Source: Alphaproteobacteria bacterium
GTDB lineage: Bacteria; Pseudomonadota; Alphaproteobacteria; M2410
Direction of reading: 5' to 3'
NCBI GenBank assembly: GCA_965248915.1
Contig: OZ252216.1
Span: 1,507,001-1,571,000 of the forward strand
DNA length: 64,000 bases
Made by a program: the position numbers and the translations under genes. Shown here in pieces: positions 1 to 42,254 of the stretch. The notes under the pieces were generated by a model. The model was not told the DNA's origin, searched no databases, and was given only the letters and a program-made list of their open reading frames with translations. Position 1 is the first letter of the stretch; each line of letters begins with the position of its first letter.

Positions 1-1464
1 TTGCCCGCTAAGATGCCCCAGACGACGCACTTCTCCAATGTGAACGTAGCAGGCGATCGCCGCCAACTCTCCTAGTGTATCCCAATCAAGTTCAGCTCCT
101 TGGAAACCATCGGGGAACTCTTCATCAATATACCCGGTCGTTAATCGACCCTCCCGAAAGCGGTCTTGACCATACACGGCGCTAAGAAACGGGATGTTAT
201 GTTGAATGCCTTCTATGTGAAAAGAATCCAGCGCACGGATCATATGATCGATTGCGGCGTTTCGATCCGGTCCATGCACACACAGCTTGGCAATCATAGG
301 GTCATAATACAGTGAGATTTCCGACCCTTCGACAACCCCCGTATCATTGCGCACCGTAAGTCCATCTCTCGTTCCTTCTTCCGGCGGCGCATAGCGCACC
401 AACCGTCCTATTGAAGGGAGGAAGTTACGAAAAGGATCTTCCGCATAGATACGGCTTTCAAAGGCCCATCCGTTCAATTGTATACCTTTTTGGGTCAGTC
501 CGAGTTTCTCACCAGCCGCGACGCGTATCATTTCCTCAACCAGGTCAATACCGGTAATGAGTTCGGAGACCGGGTGTTCAACTTGCAATCTTGTGTTCAT
601 TTCCAGGAAGTAAAAGTTCCGATTGTCATCGACAATGAACTCGACAGTTCCAGCGCTCTCGTAGTCCACTGCTTTCGCAAGCGCAACAGCTTGCTCACCC
701 ATTTTCTTTCGCGTTTTTTCATCCAGAAATGGACTGGGTGCCTCTTCAATGACCTTCTGATTGCGTCGTTGAATTGAACACTCGCGTTCGCCGATATAGA
801 CAGCACTGCCGTGCTTGTCCGCCATCACCTGTATTTCAATGTGGCGCGGATCCGTAATGAACTTCTCAATGAAAACCCGGTCATCTCCGAAGGACGATCG
901 AGCTTCATTTTTAGAAGAATTGTACCCTTGCTCGACCTCTTCCTCGGAATGGGCGATACGCATACCTTTGCCGCCACCCCCCGCTGAGGCCTTGATCATC
1001 ACCGGATAGCCGATGCCATTGGCAATTTCTATGGCCTCTTGTGAGGTCTCGATCACGCCAAGATATCCTGGCACCGTGTTCACTTTGGCCTCATTCGCGA
1101 ATTTCTTGCTCTCGATCTTGTCGCCCATCACCTGAATGGCTTTTACATTGGGGCCGATGAAGGCGATCCCCTCTGTTGCAAGCCTCTCGGCAAAACCCGA
1201 ATTCTCCGAAAGAAAACCATAGCCTGGATGAATGGCTTCAGCCTTGGTGTGCTTTGCCGCTTCAACAATTCGCTCAGCAATCAAATAGGACTCCGACGCA
1301 GCAGATGGTCCGATGTGGACACACTCATCTGCCATTCTGACATGCAACGCATCTGCATCTGCATCTGAGTATACTGCCACCGTGGCAATGCCCATTTTGC
1401 GCGCCGTCTTGATTACCCGACAGGCAATTTCTCCGCGATTGGCGATGAGTATCTTCTTAAACAT
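1..1464 (-). CDS. pccA: Biotin carboxylase domain of the acyl-CoA carboxylase alpha subunit, most likely propionyl-CoA carboxylase alpha. Only the N-terminal ~488 aa are in the window; the gene runs past position 1.
   Basis: Reverse-strand translation starts [26 protein letters not shown] and contains the ATP-grasp motif [17 protein letters not shown] (minus strand of 958..1005). pccB lies upstream on the same strand. The + strand ORFs at 478..1009 are antisense artefacts. Confidence 0.85.
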
Positions 1465-3117: not shown

Positions 3118-5346
3118 TTGGCAAATGTGTTCTTGAGCTATGCGAGCGAAGATCGCGATCAAATTCGCGACCTCGTTGCGTTTCTTGAAGATGCAGGTCT
3201 TTCAGTTTGGTGGGACAATCGGCTATTGGGTGGGTCAATGTTCTCTACTGAAATCGAGAATGAGTTGACCCAGTCGGAAGCTGTGATCGTCGTATGGTCA
3301 CGACATTCAGCAACCTCCCGATGGGTCGCGGACGAAGCCGAACTCGCTCTTCGATTGGGAAAGCTAGTTCCCATCCAAATAGATCAAACTGAACCGCCTC
3401 TCGGATTTCGACAAATCCAAACTATCGATCTCTCACAATGGCAAAACGACGCCGATGATCCAATTTTCATCACCCTTCTGGCGTCACTTCGCGCCAAATT
3501 GACGAATGTGCCAGCGTCAATCCATCGCTCCGCCACCGCTCGAACCAAAGCCCCGAAGTACTCCATTGCTGTCCTACCCTTCGTAAATATGTCGGCAGAT
3601 CCCGATCAGGAATACTTTTCTGACGGAATCTCAGAAGAGCTCCTAAATTTGCTCGCCAAAGTAACTCAAATGAAGGTCACAGCACGAGGATCAACATTTC
3701 AGTTCAAAGGTAGAGAACAAGACGTAAAGAGAGTCGGTAGCCTATTGAATGTCGCGCATGTGTTAGAGGGTAGCGTTCGCAAGGCAGGTAACCGCGTACG
3801 AATAACCGCTCAGCTCATTGAGTCAGACACGGGCTATCACATTTGGTCTGAGACCTACGATCGAACATTGGAAGACATCTTTGAAATTCAAGATGAAATC
3901 TCAGCCGCCATTGTACATGAGCTAAAGGAACGAATACTCGACGCTACCGAAATTGACTCACCGAAATCCAACCGAAGTGCAAATGTCGACGCCTATGAAC
4001 ACTTCCTACTCGGTCAACAACTACTCAACACAAGAACCAAGTCTTCAATTGAACGTGGATTGAGCGAGTTCGAAAAGTCACTGACCTTCGATCCCGATTA
4101 CCTTCCGTCACTCGTCGGTCTCGCTGAATGTCACTTGCTGCTGAGCAAGCACATTACCAGCTATGGATCGACGTCAATCAAGGAAGCGCAAGCAAAAGCT
4201 TGGCCACTTCTTCAACTGGCAGGCAAAATCGAATCCAAGAATGCCGATGTTTATTCCGCTCAAGCTCTTTATGCACTCATTGGCGATGACCTAAAGAACG
4301 CCAAAGAACTTTCCGAAAGAGCAATAGCGATAAACTCCAATAGCGCCGCCGCACATCGCATATTGGGATTTGCCTTAGCGGGATTAAGTGGTTCGACACA
4401 TCAAATTATTCCAACTCTGCAGAAGGCTCTTGAAGTAGATCCCCTGTCCTTGTCGACACTCATTTCCCTTGCGAATGAATACAAGTATCGCGGACGCTTC
4501 GCCGAAGCAGAAGCTTTGAGGCAGCGTTGTCTTGTAATCAATCCGATTTGGCCCGGCGTACTCAATGGCATGGCCAGCGATGCCTACACACGAGGCAGTC
4601 TGAAGATTGCCCTGTCCGTCTTCACCGATCATGAATCACTGCTCACCTCACCTGTTGGCTTGGCAAATATTCAACTCATTCTTACGCGGCTAGGGTTTGG
4701 TCAAGAAGTCGAATATCTCGAGGAGTACATCGCGCTCACGCTCTACTCCATTTATGGCTTTGAAGACGATGCAAATCGATTGGGCAAACGACTCACCGAC
4801 TCGCTACCTGCTGACACTGACTATGAAACAGCACTGACATTTGTGGACTGGTATTCGCGGATCGGTAAAAACAAAGAAGCTCTTGCCCTTCTGGCTCCAT
4901 TCGTAATCGACACGGACCCTTTGCAGGGGCTACTCTTTAGCCCCGACAGCGACTATTACGGCGCCATGTACATGTACCACCTAAGTTTGGAGTTGGGCGA
5001 CGTCGAGACAACAAAGGTCTACTTGGAAAATCTTCGGATTATTCATAAGGATCTTATTTCTGATCCCAACGGCATCTCCATTCGAGCTTTCATGATCGGC
5101 GCCTTGATTGCATTGGCAGATGGTGACATCGAGGTCTGTTGCGATCAAATCGAACAAGAGTTCGAACGAAACAAATCTGATACGGCATTTGAATATTCGC
5201 CATTCTTTGAACGCATCGCCGACTATCCGCGCTTCAAGGATCTCGTGGGGTGGGCCCGCAAAAATCTTCAAGCTGAGATTTCAACCGCCAAGCAAGACGG
5301 ATTGCTGCCTCCATCAAAGGAACTGCTTCAAGCCATCAAAGAATAA
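3118..5346 (+). CDS. TIR domain protein with a cyclase-associated middle domain and C-terminal TPR repeats
   Basis: N-terminus FLSYASEDRDQIRDLVAFLEDAGLSVWWD...VIVVWSRHSATSRWVADEAELA matches the bacterial TIR_2 fold, including the WxxxE glutamate position. The middle segment IAVLPFVNMSADPDQEYFSDGISEELLNLL...LEGSVRKAGNRVRITAQLIESDTGYHIWSETYDR matches the region that follows the cyclase domain in TPR-containing adenylate cyclases. The C-terminal ~450 aa are helical, TPR-like repeats. Confidence 0.8.
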   Translation: MANVFLSYASEDRDQIRDLVAFLEDAGLSVWWDNRLLGGSMFSTEIENELTQSEAVIVVWSRHSATSRWVADEAELALRLGKLVPIQIDQTEPPLGFRQIQTIDLSQWQNDADDPIFITLLASLRAKLTNVPASIHRSATARTKAPKYSIAVLPFVNMSADPDQEYFSDGISEELLNLLAKVTQMKVTARGSTFQFKGREQDVKRVGSLLNVAHVLEGSVRKAGNRVRITAQLIESDTGYHIWSETYDRTLEDIFEIQDEISAAIVHELKERILDATEIDSPKSNRSANVDAYEHFLLGQQLLNTRTKSSIERGLSEFEKSLTFDPDYLPSLVGLAECHLLLSKHITSYGSTSIKEAQAKAWPLLQLAGKIESKNADVYSAQALYALIGDDLKNAKELSERAIAINSNSAAAHRILGFALAGLSGSTHQIIPTLQKALEVDPLSLSTLISLANEYKYRGRFAEAEALRQRCLVINPIWPGVLNGMASDAYTRGSLKIALSVFTDHESLLTSPVGLANIQLILTRLGFGQEVEYLEEYIALTLYSIYGFEDDANRLGKRLTDSLPADTDYETALTFVDWYSRIGKNKEALALLAPFVIDTDPLQGLLFSPDSDYYGAMYMYHLSLELGDVETTKVYLENLRIIHKDLISDPNGISIRAFMIGALIALADGDIEVCCDQIEQEFERNKSDTAFEYSPFFERIADYPRFKDLVGWARKNLQAEISTAKQDGLLPPSKELLQAIKE
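5219..5343. repeat. Copy A of an imperfect direct repeat; it is the true 3' end of the TIR-TPR gene
   Basis: About 85% identical to 7196..7320 by eye (gactatccgcgcttcaagga...agacggattgctgcctcc...). Confidence 0.8.
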
Positions 5347-5414
5347 TCCATTCAAAGAAAGACGGCATGTATCAAGTCAAATTTCGCAGTTGTCATTGAG
5401 CAAGAAAAACCTAG

Positions 5415-7100
5415 CTACTGGACAAGGTCGATTGCATATCTAATCGGGGCATTTCGAGAGTAATTGTACTTACGCAAAATTTCGTATGTAATCTCATGGG
5501 CAGGCGTCAGCAATAGGTTTTCCTTATCGTCTAGTTCAATTTGCGAATTGTGGACAAGGTACGAATGAGAAATCGTGCCTTTCAACTTTGAGTTCTTCAG
5601 TTCAAAGTCAACAGTCTCCCCCATTTGCGCAATGTTTTGCGAAGGCACTCCGCCCACATGAGTTGCTCCTAACAGATCAAGGTACATCGCAAACATGAAT
5701 CCCGCACTGTATGTAGATGCGTTCGTCACGAAAAGTACTTCTTCAGGTCGAAAAAACTCGGCATGTGACCCTTTCATGTATTCATCATAGAATGTCTTGG
5801 AAAGAGCCAAGTCCTCTTCGACAATGCGCTTGACGTATTCACGCTCCAACAGTCCTTCACTCATTCTTGAGACATCACTCAGATCATAGTCTGAATTTCG
5901 AAGCGGAAAATCACGCATACCGTCCCTACCGGCAACTTCGTTAAGCTCTTCCAGCGTCTGATCCGGTTCAGATGAAAAATAATAGGGGGAGAGCTTTCTT
6001 GAAACGACATTTGTACGTCTGTGAAGTTCAATAAGTGCCTCTTTCCCATAAAGAAAATAAACCAACATGTCAGCTGGATACGCCCAACCTCCAATGTTTG
6101 TTCTAAGGTCAACAATAAGAACGCGGGATGAGTTCTGCTTCATTTGACGCACAAGATCCGTGTAGGTATCCGTCAGAGAAGGCAACTTGGCCATCGTTTC
6201 ATTCAAGGAACCAGTTGGCTTTTCCCCATAGATGTCGTGATAAAAGTCCTCTACACCATCGGTAACGTCTGAGTACGTGGATCGCTTTTCCCAGGTCTCG
6301 CGGTTTTGGACCATTCTTGCAACGCGCAAATAAGCAATCTCTTTGTCATTGCCGAGAAAGCCCCAACCAAACTCGCGCCCGGATGTTGAAGGCAGCTCCA
6401 GGACCTTTTCGGTACCTTTGAGTCTATCATCCACGCGAGAACGTGTCGCAAATCGCACGACTTCACTTTTGCCGTCAGGTAGTTTGAACGAAGCCTTAAG
6501 CAGAGATTTGTCTTGCCATTCCGGCACTAGATCTTCAAGAACGCTTCTCTTTCCAAGGAAGAATTCGAAGTTCGCTAGTTGGGCAAGCGTTCCATAAATA
6601 TTGTCAGCTCCGTAGTATTTTCTTGTCCGCTCGACAAGCTGATCGAATTCGACACCCTCAATGGATTCCAACCGAGCCCCAAAAAGCGATTTGTGTTCAT
6701 CGTCCATTGCGCCAGCAACGTAGAGACCTTCCTCCACCACAAGAAAATACAAGGGGATGCCGGAGAAATCCGTTGGCCCATCTGGATATACATTTGTATG
6801 TCCATCTCCAATAGAAACTAACAATGGGCTGAGCAATCCGCGATAAGCTTCCCTTCCCATTCCTTCTTGCGGAATGGCCCTTAACACACTTTGAAATCGC
6901 TCATGGAATGCCAATTTTCCTCCACCAACAAAATACGGCTGCGGATGGGCGCTCTCGATCAACTCGGCTATTTGTCTTGTGTCTGCAATCAACTCATCTT
7001 TGCTAATCAGACCATCCAGCGCATCTGATCGCACCGAAATTCCGGTCAACAGAATGCAACAGACAACTAGAATTTGAATATTTCGCAAAGATTTTACCAC
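5415..7100 (-). CDS. Secreted S41-family (C-terminal processing / tail-specific) peptidase
   Basis: Signal peptide (MVKSLRNIQILVVCCILLTGISV). S41 signature VLIVDLRTNIGGW and a serine region NASTYSAGFMFAMYLD. Confidence 0.7.
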   Translation of the reverse strand: MVKSLRNIQILVVCCILLTGISVRSDALDGLISKDELIADTRQIAELIESAHPQPYFVGGGKLAFHERFQSVLRAIPQEGMGREAYRGLLSPLLVSIGDGHTNVYPDGPTDFSGIPLYFLVVEEGLYVAGAMDDEHKSLFGARLESIEGVEFDQLVERTRKYYGADNIYGTLAQLANFEFFLGKRSVLEDLVPEWQDKSLLKASFKLPDGKSEVVRFATRSRVDDRLKGTEKVLELPSTSGREFGWGFLGNDKEIAYLRVARMVQNRETWEKRSTYSDVTDGVEDFYHDIYGEKPTGSLNETMAKLPSLTDTYTDLVRQMKQNSSRVLIVDLRTNIGGWAYPADMLVYFLYGKEALIELHRRTNVVSRKLSPYYFSSEPDQTLEELNEVAGRDGMRDFPLRNSDYDLSDVSRMSEGLLEREYVKRIVEEDLALSKTFYDEYMKGSHAEFFRPEEVLFVTNASTYSAGFMFAMYLDLLGATHVGGVPSQNIAQMGETVDFELKNSKLKGTISHSYLVHNSQIELDDKENLLLTPAHEITYEILRKYNYSRNAPIRYAIDLVQ

Positions 7101-7195
7101 CGCTCATGCCTCAGATGAATTTGTTGTTCGCATTTCAAAACAAACAAAGTCTCGTCATTTACCGAATTCAAGTGTCCTAAATTACACGTCTGGTC

Positions 7196-7320
7196 GACTA
7201 TCCGCGCTTCAAGGACCTCGCGGGGTGGCCCGCAAAGTCCTTCAAGCTGAGATTTCGACAGCCAAGCCAGACGGATTGCTGCCTCCCAACAAAGACCTCA
7301 TACAACTTACAAAGATGAAC
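7196..7320 (+). repeat. Copy B of the direct repeat: a degenerate, frameshifted fragment of a TIR-TPR C-terminus (pseudogene remnant)
   Basis: Translates to VDYPRFKDLAGW and then loses frame through a 1-bp deletion relative to copy A (tggcccgca versus tgggcccgc). With the frame restored it reads ...QAEISTAKPDGLLPP.... Confidence 0.75.
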
Positions 7321-7322
7321 AG

Positions 7323-7610
7323 TTAGTCGTTTTCTGGCCTTTCAACTCTGCAAGCATAGAAGTAAACGATCCGATCCATTTTCCAATCGACACCTTCATC
7401 AACCAGCATAATGTCCATCTCATGGTCGCCGTCCGTATCGACATAGTGCAATTGGGTATTGTCCGAGCGATAGGACAAAATCACATCGCCGTACTTTCGA
7501 GGGCGTTTGTCCGGATCAATGTCTGTACTGACAACAGTTTCACAATCATCAGCTGTTGCCGAAAATGGAAAGACCCCAATCACCAGAACCGCTAATAGAA
7601 TTCGCCACAT
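7323..7610 (-). CDS. Small secreted hypothetical protein
   Basis: 95 aa with a signal peptide (MWRILLAVLVIGVFPFSATA); acidic mature part. Confidence 0.4.
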   Translation of the reverse strand: MWRILLAVLVIGVFPFSATADDCETVVSTDIDPDKRPRKYGDVILSYRSDNTQLHYVDTDGDHEMDIMLVDEGVDWKMDRIVYFYACRVERPEND

Positions 7611-7696: not shown

Positions 7697-9229
7697 TTAC
7701 AAAGGAATATTGTCATGCTTCTTCCAGGGCATCTCGACTTCCTTTTTCCGCAACATGGCAAGTGACCGCGCGATCCGCCGCCGTGTTGAGTGCGGCATGA
7801 TCACATCATCAATGTAACCACGTTCGGCCGCAACGAAAGGATTGAGGAAACGCTCTTCATACTCTTGTGTACGCGCAGCAATCTTGTTCTCATCGCCAAT
7901 GTCTTTTCGGAAGATAATCTCCACCGCCCCTTTGGCACCCATCACGGCAATTTGCGCGGTCGGCCACGCGTAATTGACATCACCGCCCAAGTGTTTGGAC
8001 GACATGACATCGTACGCACCGCCGTAGGCTTTGCGTGTAATCACGGTGACTTTGGGAACCGTTGCTTCGCCGTAAGCAAAGAGAAGCTTTGCCCCATGTT
8101 TGATCAACCCGCCGTATTCCTGATCAGTGCCAGGTAAGAACCCTGGCACATCAACAAACGTAACAATTGGAATGTCAAAGCAGTCGCAAAAGCGAACGAA
8201 ACGCGCGCCCTTCCGGCTTGCGTCAGAATCCAGCACGCCGGCCAGAACCATCGGTTGATTGGCAAGAAAGCCAACGGTCCTGCCATCGATCCGTCCAAAC
8301 CCTGTAACCATGTTCTGGGCAAAGGCCTCTTGGATTTCAAAGAAATCACCTTCGTCGGTTACTTTAAGGATGAGTTCCTTGATGTCGTACGGTTTGTTAG
8401 GATTGTCCGGAACAAGACTATCAAGCGAGAGCTCAATACGGTCGATATCATCCTCCGTTGGCAAGACCGGAACATCATCTCGGTTCGACAAGGGGAGAAG
8501 GTTCACTAATCGCCTCACTTGTGTGAGTGCTTGAATATCGTCGTCATAGGCACCATCCGCAATGGATGATTTTGACGTATGAATACGCGCGCCACCAAGT
8601 TCTTCAGCGGTAACGGTCTCTTGTGTCACCGTCTTGACCACATCAGGCCCGGTAACAAACATGTAGGAACGATCTCGTACCATAAAGATGAAGTCCGTCA
8701 TCGCTGGCGAGTAGACATCACCGCCAGCACACGGTCCCATAATCACCGAGATCTGAGGAATGACGCCCGAAGCGGTAATGTTGCGTTGAAAGACTTCGCC
8801 ATATCCGCCGAGAGCTGCAACTCCTTCTTGAATGCGGGCACCGCCTGCATCAAACAAGCCAATGATCGGCGCTCCAGCTTTCAACGCCATATCTTGAATC
8901 TTGCAGATCTTCTGAGCATGCGTCTCCGACAAAGACCCGCCAAACACGGTGAAGTCTTTGGCGAACACAAAAACCAATCGCCCGCTGATGGTGCCCCAAC
9001 CGGTCACGACGCCGTCACCGGAGATCCCCTGCTCTTCCATACCAAAGTCGGTACAACGATGCTCGACGAACATGTCCCACTCTTCGAAGGACTCTTCGTC
9101 AAGCAATACTTCGATACGCTCCCGCGCGGTCAGCTTGCCTTTCGCGTGTTGCGACTCAATCCGCCTCTGCCCGCCACCTTGGCGTGCTTGTTCTCTCTTC
9201 TCTTCAAGTTGGCGAAGAATGTCTTGCAT
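7697..9229 (-). CDS. pccB: Propionyl-CoA carboxylase beta subunit (carboxyltransferase)
   Basis: 510 aa with the two-domain carboxyltransferase layout; motifs include [37 protein letters not shown] and GGAYDVM. Confidence 0.9.
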
Positions 9230-9331
9230 GGTGAACTCCGATTAGAAGGGTCATTTTTCTTGGGCCGAGTCGGCATTGAGCCAAGCCATGACATAGCAGC
9301 CAAGCCCAATCTTGCCAATTGCTTAAGGAAG

Positions 9332-10054
9332 CTAGGCGCTTTGACCTCTTAGGCTCTGTTGAAACTTCTTGATGGCGACGATCTCATCGCAGATCGCCGC
9401 TCGCCGCTCTGCTGCTTCTTCGTCTTGTCCCCATTGGGCCTCTTGCCACAACTCGTCGACCAAAGAGAGCGCGTGGGCCTCTTCTGCTGTCACCTCATTG
9501 TGGAACAACGCCAGTGCAAGAACTGTCGAACCAAGAAGTGGAATTGTTGGATGAACTCCAGCCAATTCAAATCGGTCGAGACTTTGCAAGAATCGACGAA
9601 GGTTCTCAATCGAAGCCACAGGTTGATCTATTGCTGAAATTCCAACCGTTACGTCCAGCGCAAATCCTACTGCATCTGCAGCCCATTGAAGAAGAGGATC
9701 CCACTTCTCGGCCTGGTGTCCCCGCAACTCCGGAGGTGTTTCAGCCCGGTAACACAAGAGATCGGAACCAGCATAATCAACAGCGGTTTCTACAAATCGA
9801 TTACATTCTGTCGCATCTCTGTCGACCGCCCCTTGCGCTAAACGGGTAACAGGCATCGATTTTGGATCGATGGTTTCCTCTTGTGCCGCCCACTCTTGCA
9901 GGATCAGGTGCGCAGTCGCTTCTTGCGGAACGGAGAGGACAGTCCGGCCAGGGGTAAGAACAGGTCGTTCATCAAGATGAATTGTGAATCCATCGTCTTC
10001 TCTGACGACTAAGACATCTTTGTAAATTCGCTTGATGGACACGGGTGCGCTCAA
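9332..10054 (-). CDS. ATP12-family F1-ATPase assembly chaperone
   Basis: 240 aa starting KRIYKDVLVV...GFTIHLDERPVLTPG; this matches ATP12 proteins of alphaproteobacteria. Confidence 0.7.
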   Translation of the reverse strand: MSAPVSIKRIYKDVLVVREDDGFTIHLDERPVLTPGRTVLSVPQEATAHLILQEWAAQEETIDPKSMPVTRLAQGAVDRDATECNRFVETAVDYAGSDLLCYRAETPPELRGHQAEKWDPLLQWAADAVGFALDVTVGISAIDQPVASIENLRRFLQSLDRFELAGVHPTIPLLGSTVLALALFHNEVTAEEAHALSLVDELWQEAQWGQDEEAAERRAAICDEIVAIKKFQQSLRGQSA

Positions 10055-10074
10055 CTCGCTTCGTCGATTGGTTT

Positions 10075-12057
10075 CTATTTCGCTTTCTTGAAGTCGAAAT
10101 CGTACCGTTCGTCAATATCATCGTGGATCGTGATTGTCCCACGATTGAGTTCAGGCGACCCAAGCAATGCACTAATGCACGGATTTTCGCCCTTTGCATC
10201 GTCATCGATAAGTGGCAACAAATCCTCATCTGCCTCCCTGACCAAGGCAAACCGACCCAGTGCCCCGGCAATGCCCCGAGAGACCGATCGGTCGTCCAAA
10301 TTGAAATAGGGTTGGGTGAGCGAACCTGTGACCCGAAGATCAGACGCATAGTCCAATAATGCCGGATTGAGAGGACGCGGCGCTAACCGAAGATCTACAG
10401 ATTCGGTTCCAAAGTTCAGATTGCCCCGCCCAGTCGTAATTAGATTGTGGGTTTGGATCAAAAAGGCGCGACTCTTGGCAAATCCATTTTTGATATCAAA
10501 TCGACTGACCGCACAATTCAAATTGATTTCCCGGGGCGCGTCGCCAATCGTACCATCTTCCAGCACCTGTGCTGCCAAAGGCCTGAGCTGCGCCATGAGA
10601 TCTCCGCCAAAGAACCGCCCAGCCCGTTCAGAGAGTTTTCCCGACCCGACAATCAGATTTGTCTGACCGTCCGCATTGGCGAACATACTTGCGATCGTAT
10701 CTCCTTCTCCATTGATATCGGCCGCGAAATCGAGCCTAGCTTGGAACTCGTCCATCACATTCATATCGGCCAGAAAGAGACCGAAATCGAAATTCGTAAG
10801 CGATGCAATCAATCTGAATTTCGGCGATAGTCTTGCGTCAACAATGAGCGAGGCATCAAACGCCCCATCCAAAAATGAAACAGCAACAGGATTCGCTGAC
10901 AAGACACCGTCCAGCAGGATAATTCTCACTTGGCCGTCATTCAGCAAGCCATTGGCCAGAAGAATGCGATCAGCGTAGTAGTCGAGCTCAATTTCCGAAG
11001 ATAAGAGAAATTCGATAGGAAGAGGATCATCGGAAAACAACTTTTTCGGCTTGCGTCGCAATCGAGCGCCTTCAAACGCATCAAGATCGAGAAGTTCAGA
11101 ACGCAGCGCGCCAGTTATGGTCAGGCTTTCATCGCGCTTAATCTCAATCCTTCCGTTTACATCTCCCCGCCCAATCCCGGCGTAAAGATCCTCAATCACG
11201 AAGTGTGACCTTGTGCCCGAAATGTTGGCGGTCAATGTAGTCGGCACATTTTGTTGCAAGTCGGTGATCCCAAGGAGAATTGCGACATCGGCAAGTTGTG
11301 GCGCATCGCCTTCCGCCAACAAATCAAGGCCAACGCTTTCGAGTTCGCCAAACGACCCTGAGACATTGAGATTTGCCGTTCCACTCTGAAAGGTCCCATC
11401 GATGAAAACCCGGTGGCCACTTAAAAAGGCAGAGACCGGACCAGATCGCCCTGTGAAGTGCACCTCTTGACCTTCAATGAACCCCATCGCTTCAAGATTG
11501 AGACCAATCTCACCAGGTGTGGCCGTTGCATCAGACAAAACCATCGTAAACACCGGCGTCGCTGCATTGATCAATTCAATCTGTCCACCAATCAACCGGA
11601 GACGGTTGAGGGCCGACATCCTAAAAGGTTCAGGCCCTGCCAACTTGAAACCAGATGAGGGGGCACGGTCCACGACATTCATGTCGCGACTAGGAACAAG
11701 GGACAAATCCGTATCAATGAGTTCAAGTGTTTCGACTTCGATACGACGGTGCAGCAAGGGCTTGAGACGAACCAGCGCCCGCATCTTCCCAATCTGCGCG
11801 GCGTAGGGAGCTACCGTTTCTGTCAATGGCTTGCGGTCATTGATCCCGACGCTCTCGAATGTCAGCCAAATACCCGGCGCCTTCGCAAGATCGAGGCCGA
11901 TAGGTCCAGAAACGATGATTTCCTGATCAAACTCTTCGCTGAGCATCGCTCCGACATCGGGCAACACTGGGCGTAAGTCGAGCGTGAACGGCGCGATCAA
12001 AAGACCGGCGATCATCAATACCATGGATGCGAGAATGGTGCCCCCAACTTTTCGCAA
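10075..12057 (-). CDS. AsmA-family outer-membrane assembly / lipid transport protein
   Basis: 660 aa with an N-terminal membrane anchor (MRKVGGTILASMVLMIAGLLIAP) followed by a long beta-rich, repetitive region typical of AsmA. Confidence 0.6.
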   Translation of the reverse strand: MRKVGGTILASMVLMIAGLLIAPFTLDLRPVLPDVGAMLSEEFDQEIIVSGPIGLDLAKAPGIWLTFESVGINDRKPLTETVAPYAAQIGKMRALVRLKPLLHRRIEVETLELIDTDLSLVPSRDMNVVDRAPSSGFKLAGPEPFRMSALNRLRLIGGQIELINAATPVFTMVLSDATATPGEIGLNLEAMGFIEGQEVHFTGRSGPVSAFLSGHRVFIDGTFQSGTANLNVSGSFGELESVGLDLLAEGDAPQLADVAILLGITDLQQNVPTTLTANISGTRSHFVIEDLYAGIGRGDVNGRIEIKRDESLTITGALRSELLDLDAFEGARLRRKPKKLFSDDPLPIEFLLSSEIELDYYADRILLANGLLNDGQVRIILLDGVLSANPVAVSFLDGAFDASLIVDARLSPKFRLIASLTNFDFGLFLADMNVMDEFQARLDFAADINGEGDTIASMFANADGQTNLIVGSGKLSERAGRFFGGDLMAQLRPLAAQVLEDGTIGDAPREINLNCAVSRFDIKNGFAKSRAFLIQTHNLITTGRGNLNFGTESVDLRLAPRPLNPALLDYASDLRVTGSLTQPYFNLDDRSVSRGIAGALGRFALVREADEDLLPLIDDDAKGENPCISALLGSPELNRGTITIHDDIDERYDFDFKKAK

Positions 12058-14196: not shown

Positions 14197-15621
14197 CTAA
14201 ACCGGTTTTATTGCGGTTGCAGGTGTTGGACTTCCACTGACACCGCCTCTTACGGCACGTTTTTCCGATTTTTTCCACTCTCTGCGCAAGTAGAACGAAT
14301 ACTCCGAACAATCAATCTGAATTGTATGGCTCTCTGACGATGTAAAACGCGATTTCATCCACGTATCGTAGGCCGCCATCTCAGACCGCATGACCCCCTT
14401 GTCCGGCAACACCACCTCGCCCACCAAGTAATCCGCCACAAAATTCGATTGCAGTTCGGCAATCGGCATCATGGCACACAGCGGTTGGACCAATGCAATA
14501 AAGGCCAAGTTCTCAATTTCTGGGTTGAAGATCCTCTGCCATAAAGGAATTGAATTCTGCGGCGCCGAAATGAAGTCTTTGTCAAAGAAAGGAAAGGTCA
14601 CATTGTATCCAGTGGCATAGATGATCGCATCGACGTCTTCCACCGAGCCATCCTCAAACATCACCTGATGACCCATCAGTTTCTTGATGTTCCCTTTCGG
14701 TGTGATGTCCCCGTGGATCAAACGGGCGTGCAGCTCTTGGCTCACTGTGGGATGGCGCATGTGGAATGGCTCCTTGGGCTCTTTCAATCCAACCCGCGTC
14801 GGCGACCCAAGGTTCCGCGTCAGCAGTTTTTCAATCACCCGGTCTGTCATCTTAAGTCTAAGACTGCGTGGTATCACCGCACGGATCAGACGCTCCTTCC
14901 AAGACGGCATCACCATCGGGTTTCGGGCCAACGCATCCTGTGGCACATTGCCAAAGACCTTCGGTACAATCCAAACACCTGAGCGCTGCGCCAGATAGAC
15001 GTTTCGGGCTCCCTGCCCCACATGTCCAAGTTCACAAGCTATATCCATTGCCGTATTACCCATGCCGACAACTACAACGTTCTTGTCGCGAAGGTCGTGC
15101 GGCGTCTGAGTGTCAATATAGTGATGGGCATGAAACTGCGGACCGTCAAACTGACCAGGGAAATCCACCATGCGCGGATCCCAGTGATGACCATTGGCAA
15201 CACAGAGAAAATCATAATGTTCGACAGAGACGCCCTCAGGACCCTCTACCGAAATTTCCCAAGTTCCATCATCGAGCCGCTTGCAGGCTTTTACCTCAGT
15301 GTTGAACTGGATTTGGTCTCGTACGCCAAACTCATCTACGTAACGATTGTATTCAGCATAGATTTCATCATGGGTCGGATACTCAGCAATCTCGGACCGA
15401 AACTTGAAATCCGATAACTCCATCATCCGTTTTGAAGTGTTGATATGAAGCGAACGATAGCAAGTCGATTGGCCATTATCGTTGTCGAATCGCCAGATGC
15501 CGCCAATACCGCTTCCCTTTTCGTAAACGACAACGGGAACCCCGTGCTGTTTGAGAACCTTCGCACAAATCACACCGCTCGTTCCGGCGCCAATCACACA
15601 TGTCTTCGGCCGCTCGACCAT
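14197..15621 (-). CDS. Flavin-containing monooxygenase; candidate trimethylamine monooxygenase
   Basis: FAD-binding GAGTSG. FMO-identifying motif FxGxxxHxxxY is present as FDGPQFHAHHY. Second Rossmann motif VVVVGMGNTAMD. Confidence 0.7.
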   Translation of the reverse strand: MVERPKTCVIGAGTSGVICAKVLKQHGVPVVVYEKGSGIGGIWRFDNDNGQSTCYRSLHINTSKRMMELSDFKFRSEIAEYPTHDEIYAEYNRYVDEFGVRDQIQFNTEVKACKRLDDGTWEISVEGPEGVSVEHYDFLCVANGHHWDPRMVDFPGQFDGPQFHAHHYIDTQTPHDLRDKNVVVVGMGNTAMDIACELGHVGQGARNVYLAQRSGVWIVPKVFGNVPQDALARNPMVMPSWKERLIRAVIPRSLRLKMTDRVIEKLLTRNLGSPTRVGLKEPKEPFHMRHPTVSQELHARLIHGDITPKGNIKKLMGHQVMFEDGSVEDVDAIIYATGYNVTFPFFDKDFISAPQNSIPLWQRIFNPEIENLAFIALVQPLCAMMPIAELQSNFVADYLVGEVVLPDKGVMRSEMAAYDTWMKSRFTSSESHTIQIDCSEYSFYLRREWKKSEKRAVRGGVSGSPTPATAIKPV

Positions 15622-15869
15622 CTAGGTCTCCTAGTCGCTTGGATCAATTATGGAAATCGAACATGACACTCCCTTCCCGACAGCGTCAAGGCGCGGACGG
15701 AAAAGCACAAACGAATCAGCTAGGTGAAAGGGATCGGGACGATTACACTTCTGCAAGCAACAAATTTTCCCTGGCGAATCTGAGCTTGCTTGATTCACAT
15801 GGCGGCCTGGCCTATTCACAAGCCTTACGCCCTTTATTGCCAGAAAGTTCACACGAGTTAAGGAGTCCC

Positions 15870-17867
15870 ATGGCCCGCGCAGCGAAGAAATCTGCGGATC
15901 TATTTGACAATGTCAGCGACAAGTCCGTCAAAGAATACAGTGCAAAAGACATTGAAGTCCTAGAAGGACTTGAACCGGTGCGTCGACGTCCCGGTATGTA
16001 TATCGGCGGCACGGACGAAAAAGCTCTGCATCACCTCTTTGCGGAAGTCCTGGACAATGCCATGGACGAAGCCGTCGCCGGACATGCCTCCTGGATCGAA
16101 GTCAACCTTCTGGACGATGGGACCCTGACGGTCACCGACAATGGACGCGGCATCCCAGTTGATCCTCACCCCAAATTCAAAAACAAATCTGCGCTCGAAG
16201 TGATCATGACCACGCTTCATTCAGGTGGTAAATTTGGCGGCAAGGCCTACGAAACATCTGGCGGCCTACACGGCGTCGGCGTCTCTGTGGTAAATGCTCT
16301 CTCGGAAATACTGATTGTCGAAGTTGCTCGCAACAAGAAGCTCTACCAACAGACGTTCTCGCGCGGCAAACCGAAGACAAAACTCAAACAAATCGGCACC
16401 ACCGGAAATCGCCGCGGCAGCAAAATCTCGTTCGTGCCCGATTCCGAAATTTTCGGGAAAACCGCTAAGTTCAAACCGTCCCGCCTCTTCCGAATGGCGC
16501 GGTCCAAGGCCTATCTCTTCGGCGGTGTTCAAATCAAATGGCGATGTGCGCCTTCTCTACTCGGCAAAGACCAATCCACACCACAAAAGGAAGACCTACA
16601 TTTTCCCGGCGGGCTCAAAGATTTTTTGGCTGCGACGATCCAAGATCGTCCAACCGTCACCAGTGAAGCTTTTGCCGGCAAGACGGAGAAAACCAAGGGC
16701 CACGGGGCCGTTGAATGGGCGATCACATGGTATGCCAGCGCGGACCCATTCTTTGACTCCTATTGCAACACCGTCCCCACCACCGAAGGCGGCACCCACG
16801 AGAGTGGTTTTCGATCTGCGCTGACCAAGGGGCTGCGTGCCTACGGCGAACTCACTGGCACCAAAAAGGCATCTCAGATATCAGCTGATGATGTCATGAG
16901 TACGGCTGGCGCTCTAATGTCGGTCTTCATTCGTGAGCCGGAATTTCAAGGCCAGACGAAAGAAAAACTGGCGACCGTCGAAGCCACCAAGTTAGTAGAA
17001 AGCGCGGTGCGAGATCATTTCGACCATTGGCTGACAAAGTCACCCAAGGAAGCCGACAAGCTGTTGGAGTGGACAATTGAACGCTCCGAAGACCGCTTGC
17101 GCCGCCGAAAAGAACGTGAGGTCTCCCGCAAAAACGCTGTTCGAAAACTCCGCCTGCCGGGCAAACTCGCAGACTGCAGTAGCGGGGCGGCTGACAACAC
17201 AGAGATCTTCATTGTCGAGGGAGACTCGGCTGGTGGCTCTGCAAAGCAAGCACGCGATCGCAAGACCCAAGCCATCCTGCCCTTGCGAGGCAAGATCCTC
17301 AACGTCGCAAGCGCCGGCGCCGCAAAGATCCAAGCAAACCAAGAACTGAGCGATCTCATCCAAGCACTGGGTTGTGGACTACGCGACAAATACCGCGAAA
17401 ACGATCTTCGCTACGACCGCGTGGTCATTATGACGGACGCCGATGTCGATGGTGCCCATATCGCCTCTCTTTTGATCACCTTCTTCTACAAAGAAATTCC
17501 GAACCTCATTCGCGACGGTCATTTATTCCTCGCCGTCCCGCCCCTCTATCGCCTTAGCCAAGGGGGCAAGTCGGCCTATGCCCGCGATGACGAACACCGC
17601 GACGAATTGATAAAGAAAGAGTTCAAGGGCAAGGGCAAGATTGAAGTCAGTCGCTTCAAAGGCCTCGGCGAAATGATGCCTGCGCAGCTTAAAGAAACCA
17701 CCATGAAGCCTGGCAGCCGCACACTCCTACGCGTTGAGTTCCCTGAAGATATTGATGACGTTAAAGACACAGCCAATCTCGTAGAGACCCTAATGGGCAA
17801 AAAACCGGAACTTCGTTTCGCCTACATCCAAGAAAATGCGGTCTATGCTGAAGACCTCGACATTTAG
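15870..17867 (+). CDS. parE: DNA topoisomerase IV subunit B
   Basis: GHKL ATPase plus TOPRIM motifs: VLDNAMDE, VTDNGRGIP, EGDSAGGSAK, IMTDADVDGAHI. Length (665 aa) fits ParE rather than the longer alphaproteobacterial GyrB. An aggag RBS sits at 15861..15865. The ORF-track start at 15600 overlaps the FMO gene, so I reject it in favour of the ATG at 15870. Confidence 0.85.
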   Translation: MARAAKKSADLFDNVSDKSVKEYSAKDIEVLEGLEPVRRRPGMYIGGTDEKALHHLFAEVLDNAMDEAVAGHASWIEVNLLDDGTLTVTDNGRGIPVDPHPKFKNKSALEVIMTTLHSGGKFGGKAYETSGGLHGVGVSVVNALSEILIVEVARNKKLYQQTFSRGKPKTKLKQIGTTGNRRGSKISFVPDSEIFGKTAKFKPSRLFRMARSKAYLFGGVQIKWRCAPSLLGKDQSTPQKEDLHFPGGLKDFLAATIQDRPTVTSEAFAGKTEKTKGHGAVEWAITWYASADPFFDSYCNTVPTTEGGTHESGFRSALTKGLRAYGELTGTKKASQISADDVMSTAGALMSVFIREPEFQGQTKEKLATVEATKLVESAVRDHFDHWLTKSPKEADKLLEWTIERSEDRLRRRKEREVSRKNAVRKLRLPGKLADCSSGAADNTEIFIVEGDSAGGSAKQARDRKTQAILPLRGKILNVASAGAAKIQANQELSDLIQALGCGLRDKYRENDLRYDRVVIMTDADVDGAHIASLLITFFYKEIPNLIRDGHLFLAVPPLYRLSQGGKSAYARDDEHRDELIKKEFKGKGKIEVSRFKGLGEMMPAQLKETTMKPGSRTLLRVEFPEDIDDVKDTANLVETLMGKKPELRFAYIQENAVYAEDLDI

Positions 17868-40926: not shown

Positions 40927-41515
40927 AGACGCACCAGAAAAACCGAAAATGAAGACCCAATCTCAACCGCAACAAACGAGGCGTAACGTGAAATCCGCTC
41001 CTTCGATTATTAGCGCCGACATGACCGTGAACGGAACGCTCACGGCAACAGGCGACATTCAGGTCGACGGTACAGTAGAGGGCGATATCTCTAGCGCCTC
41101 ACTGACCATCGGTGAAAAAGCAACCGTACATGGCGAAGTCATATCGGAAGATGTTGTGATCCGAGGACGGGTCATTGGCAGCGTTCGCGCAAATCGCGTC
41201 CAGCTCTCCTCTTCCAGCCATGTCGAAGGCGACATTTATCATCAGGCCTTGGCCGTCGAAACGGGCGCCTTCTTTGAAGGCAACTGCCGTCACTCGGACA
41301 ATCCAATGGCTGAATCAGGTGGCGGCGGACGCGGATCCCGCAAAGTTGCTACCAATCCACTCGAGCAAGGCGGCAAGCCTGCGATGGCTCACGAGAGCGG
41401 CGCCAAAAGCCCGCCCCGACCGGCCCGCAATGGTGGCGGCGGCCGCGCTCCAGTCGAAGCTCAGTCAGCGTTGCAACGCTTGACCGGCTCAAGTGGACGC
41501 AAGGGCCAAGACTAA
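40910..41515 (+). CDS. Bactofilin (polymer-forming cytoskeletal protein)
   Basis: Bactofilin/DUF583 beta-helical repeats (VNGTLTATGDIQVDGTVEGDIS...VHGEV...IRGRVIGSVRAN...VEGDIYHQALAVETGAFFEGNC). The start overlaps the M23 gene by 17 nt. Confidence 0.85.
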   Translation: MFSKAKDAPEKPKMKTQSQPQQTRRNVKSAPSIISADMTVNGTLTATGDIQVDGTVEGDISSASLTIGEKATVHGEVISEDVVIRGRVIGSVRANRVQLSSSSHVEGDIYHQALAVETGAFFEGNCRHSDNPMAESGGGGRGSRKVATNPLEQGGKPAMAHESGAKSPPRPARNGGGGRAPVEAQSALQRLTGSSGRKGQD

Positions 41516-41540: not shown

Positions 41541-41575
41541 CCCCTTGGGCCTTGGCCCTAGGGGGTTTTTCTTTG
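41541..41575 (+). terminator. Rho-independent terminator after the first bactofilin gene
   Basis: GC-rich hairpin cccc-ttGGGCC-tt-GGCCCta-gggg followed by ttttt. Confidence 0.7.
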
Positions 41576-42203: not shown

Positions 42204-42254
42204 GGAAAAAACATTCAAGCAAAGTTTTGGGTCGACCCTTGAGGTCGGCCTTTT

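Follow-up and report, generated by a model that had tools for sequence, protein, structure and literature searches.

In a window of 64,000 nucleotides (contig OZ252216.1 of an alphaproteobacterial genome, positions 1,507,001 to 1,571,000), the 3' end of a gene coding for a protein with a TIR domain, a TolB-like part and TPR repeats (the TIR-TPR gene in what follows) is found twice: once in place, as copy A, and once 2 kb further downstream, as copy B, on the other side of a gene for an S41-family peptidase. Judging from its sequence, copy B is very probably the relic of the tail of a second TIR-TPR gene: it is homologous to copy A, it is truncated, its frame is broken by the loss of one base pair, and its restored stop codon overlaps that of an open reading frame (ORF) of the other strand, ORF95. 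As marks of genome flux, the relic and the inserted peptidase gene are ordinary. The unusual part is a hairpin, which the differences between copy B and copy A build in a non-random way, a result of which we are nearly certain. Taken as a whole, our interpretation is that the tail of a second TIR-TPR gene was displaced, that a hairpin was built in it by template switching and that this hairpin was kept for a role at the RNA level; we give this whole an even chance of being right. The features on which the argument bears are the following (all positions are those of the window).

3118-5346, plus strand: intact TIR / TolB-like / TPR gene, 742 aa from a TTG start (Pfam TIR_2, E 5.9e-25; weak TPR matches)
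5211-5346, plus strand: copy A, the last 45 codons and the stop of the intact TIR-TPR gene, reading RIADYPRFKDLVGWARKNLQAEISTAKQDGLLPPSKELLQAIKE and then the stop
5347-5414: spacer of 68 bp separating the TIR-TPR stop from the convergent S41 stop, without similarity to the sequence after copy B
5415-7100, minus strand: S41-family peptidase gene, 561 aa, with a hydrophobic signal-like N-terminus
7101-7186: unique stretch of 86 bp upstream of the S41 start, holding an in-frame TAA at 7178-7180
7187-7326, plus strand: copy B, 140 nt, very probably what remains of a second TIR-TPR copy, namely its last 46 codons, with a 1-bp deletion at 7228/7229 and a restored TAG at 7324-7326
7187-7273, minus strand: interrupted stem-loop of 34 bp in the first 87 nt of the relic, found by RNA folding
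7323-7610, minus strand: ORF95, 95 aa, with a signal-peptide-like start; its stop (7323-7325) overlaps the restored stop of the relic by 2 nt

The repeat itself was established by several alignments. When the 3' end of the TIR-TPR gene is aligned to the region 7100-7320 and its surroundings, the similarity is far above chance and limited to two copies: the pair 5212-5346 and 7187-7326 scores 76, while 500 shuffled sequences score 8.2 on average and 14 at most (0/500), and a local alignment pairs 5211-5342 with 7186-7315 at a score of 77. The segment 3000-5420, searched with blastn against the window, has a single non-self match (5220-5319 with 7195-7294, 89.1% identity over 101 columns, E 2.2e-30), and no further fragment of the TIR-TPR gene besides copies A and B was found by this search; the two copies are also matched by tblastn (E 7e-8). 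The original prediction of a direct repeat of about 125 nt at roughly 85% identity was thus about right. In codon register, the copies are identical at 102 of 135 positions and at 90 of the first 108, the identity fading in the last 25 nt or so, and the homology may begin 9 nt before the boundary first proposed, at 7187. The longest identical block, of 21 nt (5220-5240 and 7195-7215), lies at the 5' edge of the repeat, and blocks of 18 nt and 17 nt lie inside it. The 20-mer GACTATCCGCGCTTCAAGGA occurs twice in the 64 kb when up to 3 mismatches are allowed (0.02 occurrences expected). Beyond the repeat, the left flanks score 11 (shuffle mean 9.0) and the right flanks, that is the 68-bp spacer and the sequence after copy B, score 9 (shuffle mean 8.4), which is the level of chance: the edges of the repeat are sharp and the flanking sequences are unrelated. 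A transposon target-site duplication was rejected, the repeat being some 130 bp long and 76-89% identical, and neither a transposase nor, at the edges of the segment, terminal inverted repeats being present. A 19-nt inverted repeat (79% complementary, 5198-5216 and 5346-5364) brackets copy A almost exactly; it is probably due to chance, pairs of similar quality existing elsewhere in the region.

Copy B has no start and no 5' part, and there is no homology upstream of it. Before the deletion it reads ITRLVDYPRFKDLAGW, in a frame which is closed by the TAA at 7178-7180. The frame runs as RLVDYPRFKDLAGW up to 7228, where one G is lost (GGGTGG-CC), and then as RKVLQAEISTAKPDGLLPPNKDLIQLTKMNS to the TAG at 7324-7326; the peptide restored in this way is 75% identical to that of copy A. 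The single-base deletion that had been announced is therefore seen, between 7228 and 7229, and copy B is not inside an intact ORF, since the only ORFs that overlap it are mechanical ones of 33 and 35 aa. The absence of a start, the in-frame TAA upstream, the frameshift and the blastn match bear out the claim that copy B is the relic of the tail of a second TIR-TPR-like gene. Significant homology, loss of the start and of the remainder of the gene, and a disabling 1-bp deletion are what a truncated pseudogene presents. Neutral and unpatterned decay, which such a pseudogene also presents, is not found here: the 12 substitutions in 7187-7276 are all at positions that are paired in the hairpin. 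A GTG-initiated ORF of 33 codons, MARKVLQAEISTAKPDGLLPPNKDLIQLTKMNS (7225-7326, plus strand), starts just past the frameshift and keeps the old frame to the stop.

The C-terminal motif ..PRF/Y..L....AGLLP.P..L is conserved across the TIR-TPR family, which means that the tail is ancestral coding sequence and not an inserted repeat element. An exhaustive phmmer search of the 52-residue tail against 1.84 billion representative proteins returned the gene itself only, plus a spurious low-complexity eukaryotic protein; hence copies A and B are each other's closest known relatives. The degenerate pattern DYPRFKDL.GW gave 0 matches in metagenome contigs. A word-indexed protein search with the alignment of the two tails gave no match either, an unreliable negative since this search also missed the database protein P0001, whose tail is identical.

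The differences between the copies number 6, 8 and 16 at codon positions 1, 2 and 3, and the Nei-Gojobori estimates of nonsynonymous (dN) and synonymous (dS) divergence are 0.18 and 0.71 (0.12 and 0.37 over the first 34 codons). Outside the hairpin, four clean synonymous changes are found in 14 codons. These few sites suggest that the copies diverged while both were coding, and the two could be paralogues or alleles from different genomes. A dS of about 0.4-0.7 with a bias to third positions implies that the copies separated long ago or came from different genomes; the earlier description of the region as recently rearranged is not supported.

We then come to the hairpin. The ORF95-S41 intergenic region folds at a z-score of -4.4. 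The minus-strand RNA of 7180-7285 reaches -55.1 kcal/mol (z -5.87, 0/200 shuffles) and the plus-strand RNA -40.3 kcal/mol (z -3.0); the equivalent stretch of copy A has z-scores of -0.58 (minus strand) and +0.71 (plus strand). Among 10,650 segments of 100 nt covering both strands of the 64 kb, the hairpin of the relic ranks first, with a GC-adjusted z-score of -5.77, the runner-up being at -3.71. It has 34 pairs (29 Watson-Crick and 5 G.U) in four stacked helices.

7187-7193 with 7267-7273: base of the stem; the homology has its 5' limit at the same position 7187
7194-7202 with 7257-7265: second helix
7206-7209 with 7244-7247: third helix
7211-7224 with 7229-7242: inner helix
7225-7228: loop, adjoining the frameshift site

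In copy A, the same positions of the minus strand give 20 Watson-Crick pairs, 9 of the G.U type and 5 mismatches. All of the 12 substitutions in 7187-7276 are at paired positions and none is among the 22 unpaired ones, and no pair is disrupted: 10 of them improve 9 pairs, and the other 2 make up a compensatory double change from UA to CG (7216/7237). When copy A is mutated at random by 12 substitutions and one deletion, the fold averages -25.1 +/- 4.2 kcal/mol and is at best -44.5, so that 0/5000 mutants reach -54 kcal/mol; when random bases are placed at the observed positions, 0/3000 reach this value. Three homologous genes of other genomes have unstructured tails (z -0.15 to +1.5), which suggests that the hairpin is a derived property of copy B; on this ground we rejected the hairpin as a family-wide feature of TIR-TPR tails. 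The residues which the family has at the N/V and Q/P positions also suggest that copy B is the derived state.

Of the 13 changes, 7 are gathered in two clusters: AAT became GTC opposite GGAC, and CGCATCG became CGTCTGG opposite CCAGACG. Both clusters are exact complements of the opposite arms, which is the signature of quasipalindrome template switching. Template switching creates and perfects hairpins through such clustered changes (PMC8794818, PMC7202029). As in quasipalindrome template switching, clustered multi-base changes and a frameshift here complement the other arm, and a compensatory double change keeps a pair. Unlike in the documented cases, the state "before" is approximated by a paralogue of the same genome and not by a reconstructed ancestor, the substrate is the remnant of a gene, and many separate events would be needed.

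On the minus strand, the hairpin begins 47 nt past the stop of ORF95, which is itself preceded on this strand by pccB, the gene of the carboxyltransferase subunit of propionyl-CoA carboxylase. This strand, shared by pccB, ORF95 and the S41 gene, gives the more stable fold, by 15 kcal/mol, and the z-scores agree. In the middle of the inner stem, the CTC/AAA positions are mismatches in DNA which were left uncorrected and which form G.U pairs in the minus-strand RNA only. Because of the stronger minus-strand z-score, of these positions paired in RNA only and of the placement after the ORF95 stop, we favour a role of the hairpin at the RNA level, on the minus strand; going by the folding models, its chance of being real is somewhat below even. 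The more specific proposal, according to which a fragment of a dead gene was recruited as a functional RNA stem-loop, built by template switching and, for example, protecting the 3' end of the pccB-ORF95 transcript or insulating it from the S41 gene, is put forward tentatively and appears rather doubtful. Like Rho-independent terminators and 3' stabilisers of the repetitive extragenic palindrome (REP) kind, the element is a very stable stem-loop located shortly past a stop codon on the transcribed strand. Unlike the clear terminators of the source genome, it has 34 interrupted pairs instead of a 9-bp GC stem with a T-run, its tail is weakly U-rich, and it is present in a single copy in the window. 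Two textbook intrinsic terminators are found elsewhere in the window, at 41541-41565 and 42229-42251 (plus strand), with 9-bp GC-rich stems followed by T-runs, after genes ending at 41515 and 42203.

The same hairpin may also have arisen without any function. The relic would then be as described above, a weak quasipalindrome having been repeatedly "corrected" by intrastrand template switching after the coding constraint was lifted and the product fixed by drift, and the edge of the relic would coincide with the base of the stem since illegitimate recombination has endpoints at hairpins. With G.U pairs counted, 29 of the 34 positions of the minus strand are paired in copy A already, which means that a quasipalindrome pre-existed, and the two clusters complement the opposite arm in the way reported for template switching (PMC8794818, PMC7202029); moreover there is neither a terminator-like T-run nor an Rfam match. 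Such a correction accounts less easily for changes which, spread over both arms and three helices, need some 9 separate events or more and all go toward pairing. It should also have removed the CTC/AAA mismatches, which remained uncorrected in DNA and pair as G.U in the minus-strand RNA alone, and it gives no account of a minus-strand z-score about twice that of the plus strand, with no comparable site in 64 kb. We consider this functionless origin to be possible, on the unlikely side.

Another explanation places the hairpin earlier, in the coding 3' end of the intact second copy, where it would have served the convergent pccB-ORF95 transcript and would have been spared by the deletion as needed. 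It fits with the open restored frame, with the mostly conservative changes in the arms (RIA to RLV, V to A), with the overlap of the ORF95 and relic stops, which leaves no intergenic room, and with the start of the relic at the base of the stem. However, the changes N to V and Q to P depart from the usual residues of the family, the deletion at the edge of the loop breaks the frame, and the three homologue tails, which also face convergent genes, have no such structure. This makes it improbable in our opinion.

Finally, the minus-strand transcript over the relic could be a trans-acting antisense RNA directed against the 3' end of the TIR-TPR mRNA, coupling expression of the defence-like TIR gene to the pcc operon. 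The predicted duplex is at -180 kcal/mol against -87 for both self-folds, with perfect runs of 21, 18 and 17 nt, and the relic, in a region that is probably transcribed, is on the antisense side. Homologous copies form such a duplex as a matter of course, however, and the changes of copy B raise its self-pairing and lower its complementarity to copy A, which is the opposite of what antisense selection would do; we find this idea scarcely credible.

Under the interpretation which we prefer, copy B would be what is left, still in its original place, of the 3' end of another TIR-TPR gene. This second gene, diverged from the intact one, would have been a paralogue of it or the resident allele that was displaced, and would once have ended tail-to-tail against ORF95, downstream of pccB. 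The remainder of this second gene would have been lost when the probably foreign S41 gene took its place, leaving the stretch from the base of the stem-loop to the old stop codon, with the intact TIR-TPR gene now ending 2 kb upstream. The two copies would have diverged at first while both were still coding; quasipalindrome template-switch mutations would then have supplied the clustered changes perfecting the hairpin; and the stem-loop would have been kept because it acts, as RNA, on the minus-strand pccB-ORF95(-S41) transcript, protecting a 3' end or insulating. The order of these events, the template switching and any function are inferred.

Three routes could possibly have led to this arrangement. 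In the first, one-sided homologous recombination together with an illegitimate join (homology-facilitated illegitimate recombination, HFIR) would have brought in a diverged allele and the S41 gene and displaced the resident tail; no compositional mosaic is seen in the TIR-TPR gene. In the second, a tandem paralogue would have been mostly replaced later, which is consistent with the clustering of paralogues on the contig of a homologue. The third starts from an integrative element, decayed since, that had supplied a surrogate 3' end; neither an integrase nor another gene of such an element was found. All three yield the same end state and are indistinguishable without relatives closer than 82% pccB identity. 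The same holds for the two scenarios of the original prediction, a tandem duplication followed by deletion or replacement and a recombination-mediated insertion, both of which are possible.

An HFIR-type route, with one homologous and one illegitimate join, was proposed for the orphan 3' ends of type VI secretion system (T6SS) and Rhs arrays (PMC5361080, PMC3240628). As in these arrays, a full-length gene is followed downstream by an older 3' fragment on the same strand, with new DNA between them. Here, in contrast, there is no toxin/immunity module, the homology covers the whole tail and does not stop at a variable tip, and what was inserted is the gene of a peptidase, convergent with the full-length gene. 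A C-terminal displacement of the Rhs or polymorphic-toxin type was rejected as such, given the presence of TIR and TPR domains only, the homology across the whole tail and the intervening 561-aa peptidase gene on the other strand.

Phage 21, like prophage e14, is at icd an element carrying a substitute 3' end. The repeats studied here could be the attL and attR scars of a decayed integrative element of this sort in the TIR-TPR 3' end, copy A being the surrogate tail, copy B the native tail and the S41 gene the surviving cargo. The geometry is that of icd ... e14 ... icdC in E. coli K-12, where the gene extends into the element and a C-terminal pseudogene is at the far end: there too, the 3' end is duplicated as imperfect direct repeats which differ partly by synonymous changes, one copy completing the gene and the other being a C-terminal pseudogene beyond the inserted DNA (PMC13626634). 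Our copies also differ partly by synonymous changes, the native-looking overlap with the ORF95 stop belongs to copy B, and the 21-nt longest identical block is at the 5' edge of the repeat, the place expected for a crossover core. Unlike at icd, the intervening 1.97 kb, which would make an "element" of one gene, holds no integrase or element genes, and excision is not inferable; no integrase, excisionase or other mobile-element gene is found between the copies or within 12 kb, and the window is without tRNA genes. The inside of the repeat also has identical blocks of 17-18 nt, so that the 21-nt block is not clearly distinctive, and the hairpin would be left unexplained. Scars of this kind seem to us very improbable.

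Several observations weigh against the interpretation which we prefer, and they are best given together. No relative above 82% pccB identity or 45% TIR-TPR identity was found with which the ancestral arrangement and the direction of the changes could be verified. The ratio of dN to dS is drawn from 43 codons and is confounded, since many of the differences build the hairpin. A mosaic TIR-TPR gene with an imported 3' part was looked for and rejected, no change-point being found in the G+C content at third codon positions (GC3; p about 0.3). The tail after the hairpin, UGUAAUUUA (5 U in 8), is weakly U-rich and a consensus terminator scan did not report a site there; the clear terminators of the source genome carry TTTTT tails, and the hairpin of the relic has no such T-run; these traits speak against a classical terminator in particular. 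In Rfam 15 the sole match is mir-8186, at E 0.54 and with 22 bits where the gathering score is 80. The higher stability of the minus strand partly reflects its richness in G, and a neutral correction of quasipalindromes predicts the same pattern of improved pairs without function.

The origin of long, well-paired RNA stems is debated, and template switching is one proposed answer. If our interpretation is true, copy A as the starting sequence and copy B as the product, 2 kb apart, form a natural "before and after" pair for a long RNA hairpin. A functional hairpin would mean that a fragment of a pseudogene was exapted as a cis-acting RNA element; a hairpin without function would show how far the neutral correction of palindromes can reach.

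Exactly one gene lies between the copies, as had been claimed, and it is that of the S41 peptidase (5415-7100, minus strand; Pfam Peptidase_S41, E 1.9e-7). The Pfam match spans residues 310-522 only, the N-terminal 300 residues being without known domain. We found 34 relatives of this protein in 5.8 billion proteins, mostly from marine metagenomes, with 55-56% identity at best; the single named source is Eudoraea, a flavobacterium. Its GC3 of 0.457 is the lowest among the 47 ORFs of the window (z -2.2), and from this value and from the small number of relatives it can be concluded that the gene is probably foreign and horizontally acquired. The GC3 of the TIR-TPR gene and of ORF95 is also low in the window. 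The two loci of S41 homologues which were read have 38% and 43% G+C against 52% in the window, and no TIR-TPR neighbour. A conserved pairing of TIR-TPR and S41 genes was rejected, the neighbours of three TIR-TPR and two S41 homologues being unrelated. No sigma-70-like site was found on the minus strand of 7101-7186.

The protein P0001, which starts 3 codons later, is identical to the product of the TIR-TPR gene, and the next full-length relative in the 5.8 billion proteins is 45% identical; a scan of a collection of genome contigs with the TIR-TPR protein finds only distant relatives (up to 52% identity over partial segments). In longer relatives, the N-terminal TIR domain is swapped for adenylate cyclase or Ser/Thr kinase domains. 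The comparison of these proteins suggests a modular signalling family and not a defined defence system; membership of a defence system was rejected, since the TIR domain alone matches in the PADLOC models. On the metagenome contig L082, three genes of the family are found within 18 kb (1-148, 8001-10223 and 15544-17613).

The remaining genes of the locus are given below.

7697-9229, minus strand: pccB (Pfam Carboxyl_trans, E 4.8e-198), 74-82% identical to its counterparts in 80 metagenome loci
between the S41 gene and pccA in minus-strand order, minus strand: a DUF4282 gene and an ORF of 263 aa (ORF263)
1-1464, minus strand: 5' part of pccA, the gene of the biotin carboxylase subunit of propionyl-CoA carboxylase, cut off by the left edge of the window; 65-75% identical to the pccA found downstream of pccB in 20 related loci

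The order on the minus strand is thus pccB, ORF95, S41 gene, DUF4282 gene, ORF263 and pccA, and the TIR-TPR gene, convergent with the S41 gene, is the sole gene of this block on the plus strand. ORF95 has no match in Pfam, NCBIfam or PADLOC. Its G+C content is higher at first than at second codon positions, as in coding sequence, and we infer that it is a real gene.

In this window pccB and pccA are 6232 bp apart, and the spacer holds five ORFs, one of them on the opposite strand. In the 20 related loci where pccA follows pccB, the gap is 13-5502 bp and its contents are unrelated (a transporter, a GST, a GGDEF protein, an esterase). Since the spacer varies in this way in relatives, the rearrangement is not unusual, contrary to what had been said of it for a core metabolic locus; from these comparisons, the pccB-pccA spacer looks like a site of recurrent gene gain in Alphaproteobacteria. 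The original prediction hence keeps its relic and its single bracketed S41 gene and loses the words "unusual" and "recent", and it had overlooked that the differences between the copies build a hairpin non-randomly. None of the 80 metagenome loci anchored on pccB (up to 82% identity) has homologues of ORF95, the S41 gene, the DUF4282 gene or ORF263; in 31 loci, ATP12 is found before pccB. Two types of ORF were noticed in the pccB-pccA spacers of relatives: one, ending in ..VFE.YRP.D..C.WEEF, in L159 and L163, and the other, a small ORF with the motif FFVE.V.D.IVWQ...P.G, just upstream of pccA in L109 (9085-10092), L131 (8050-8481), L115 (5071-5550) and L094 (11137-11592).

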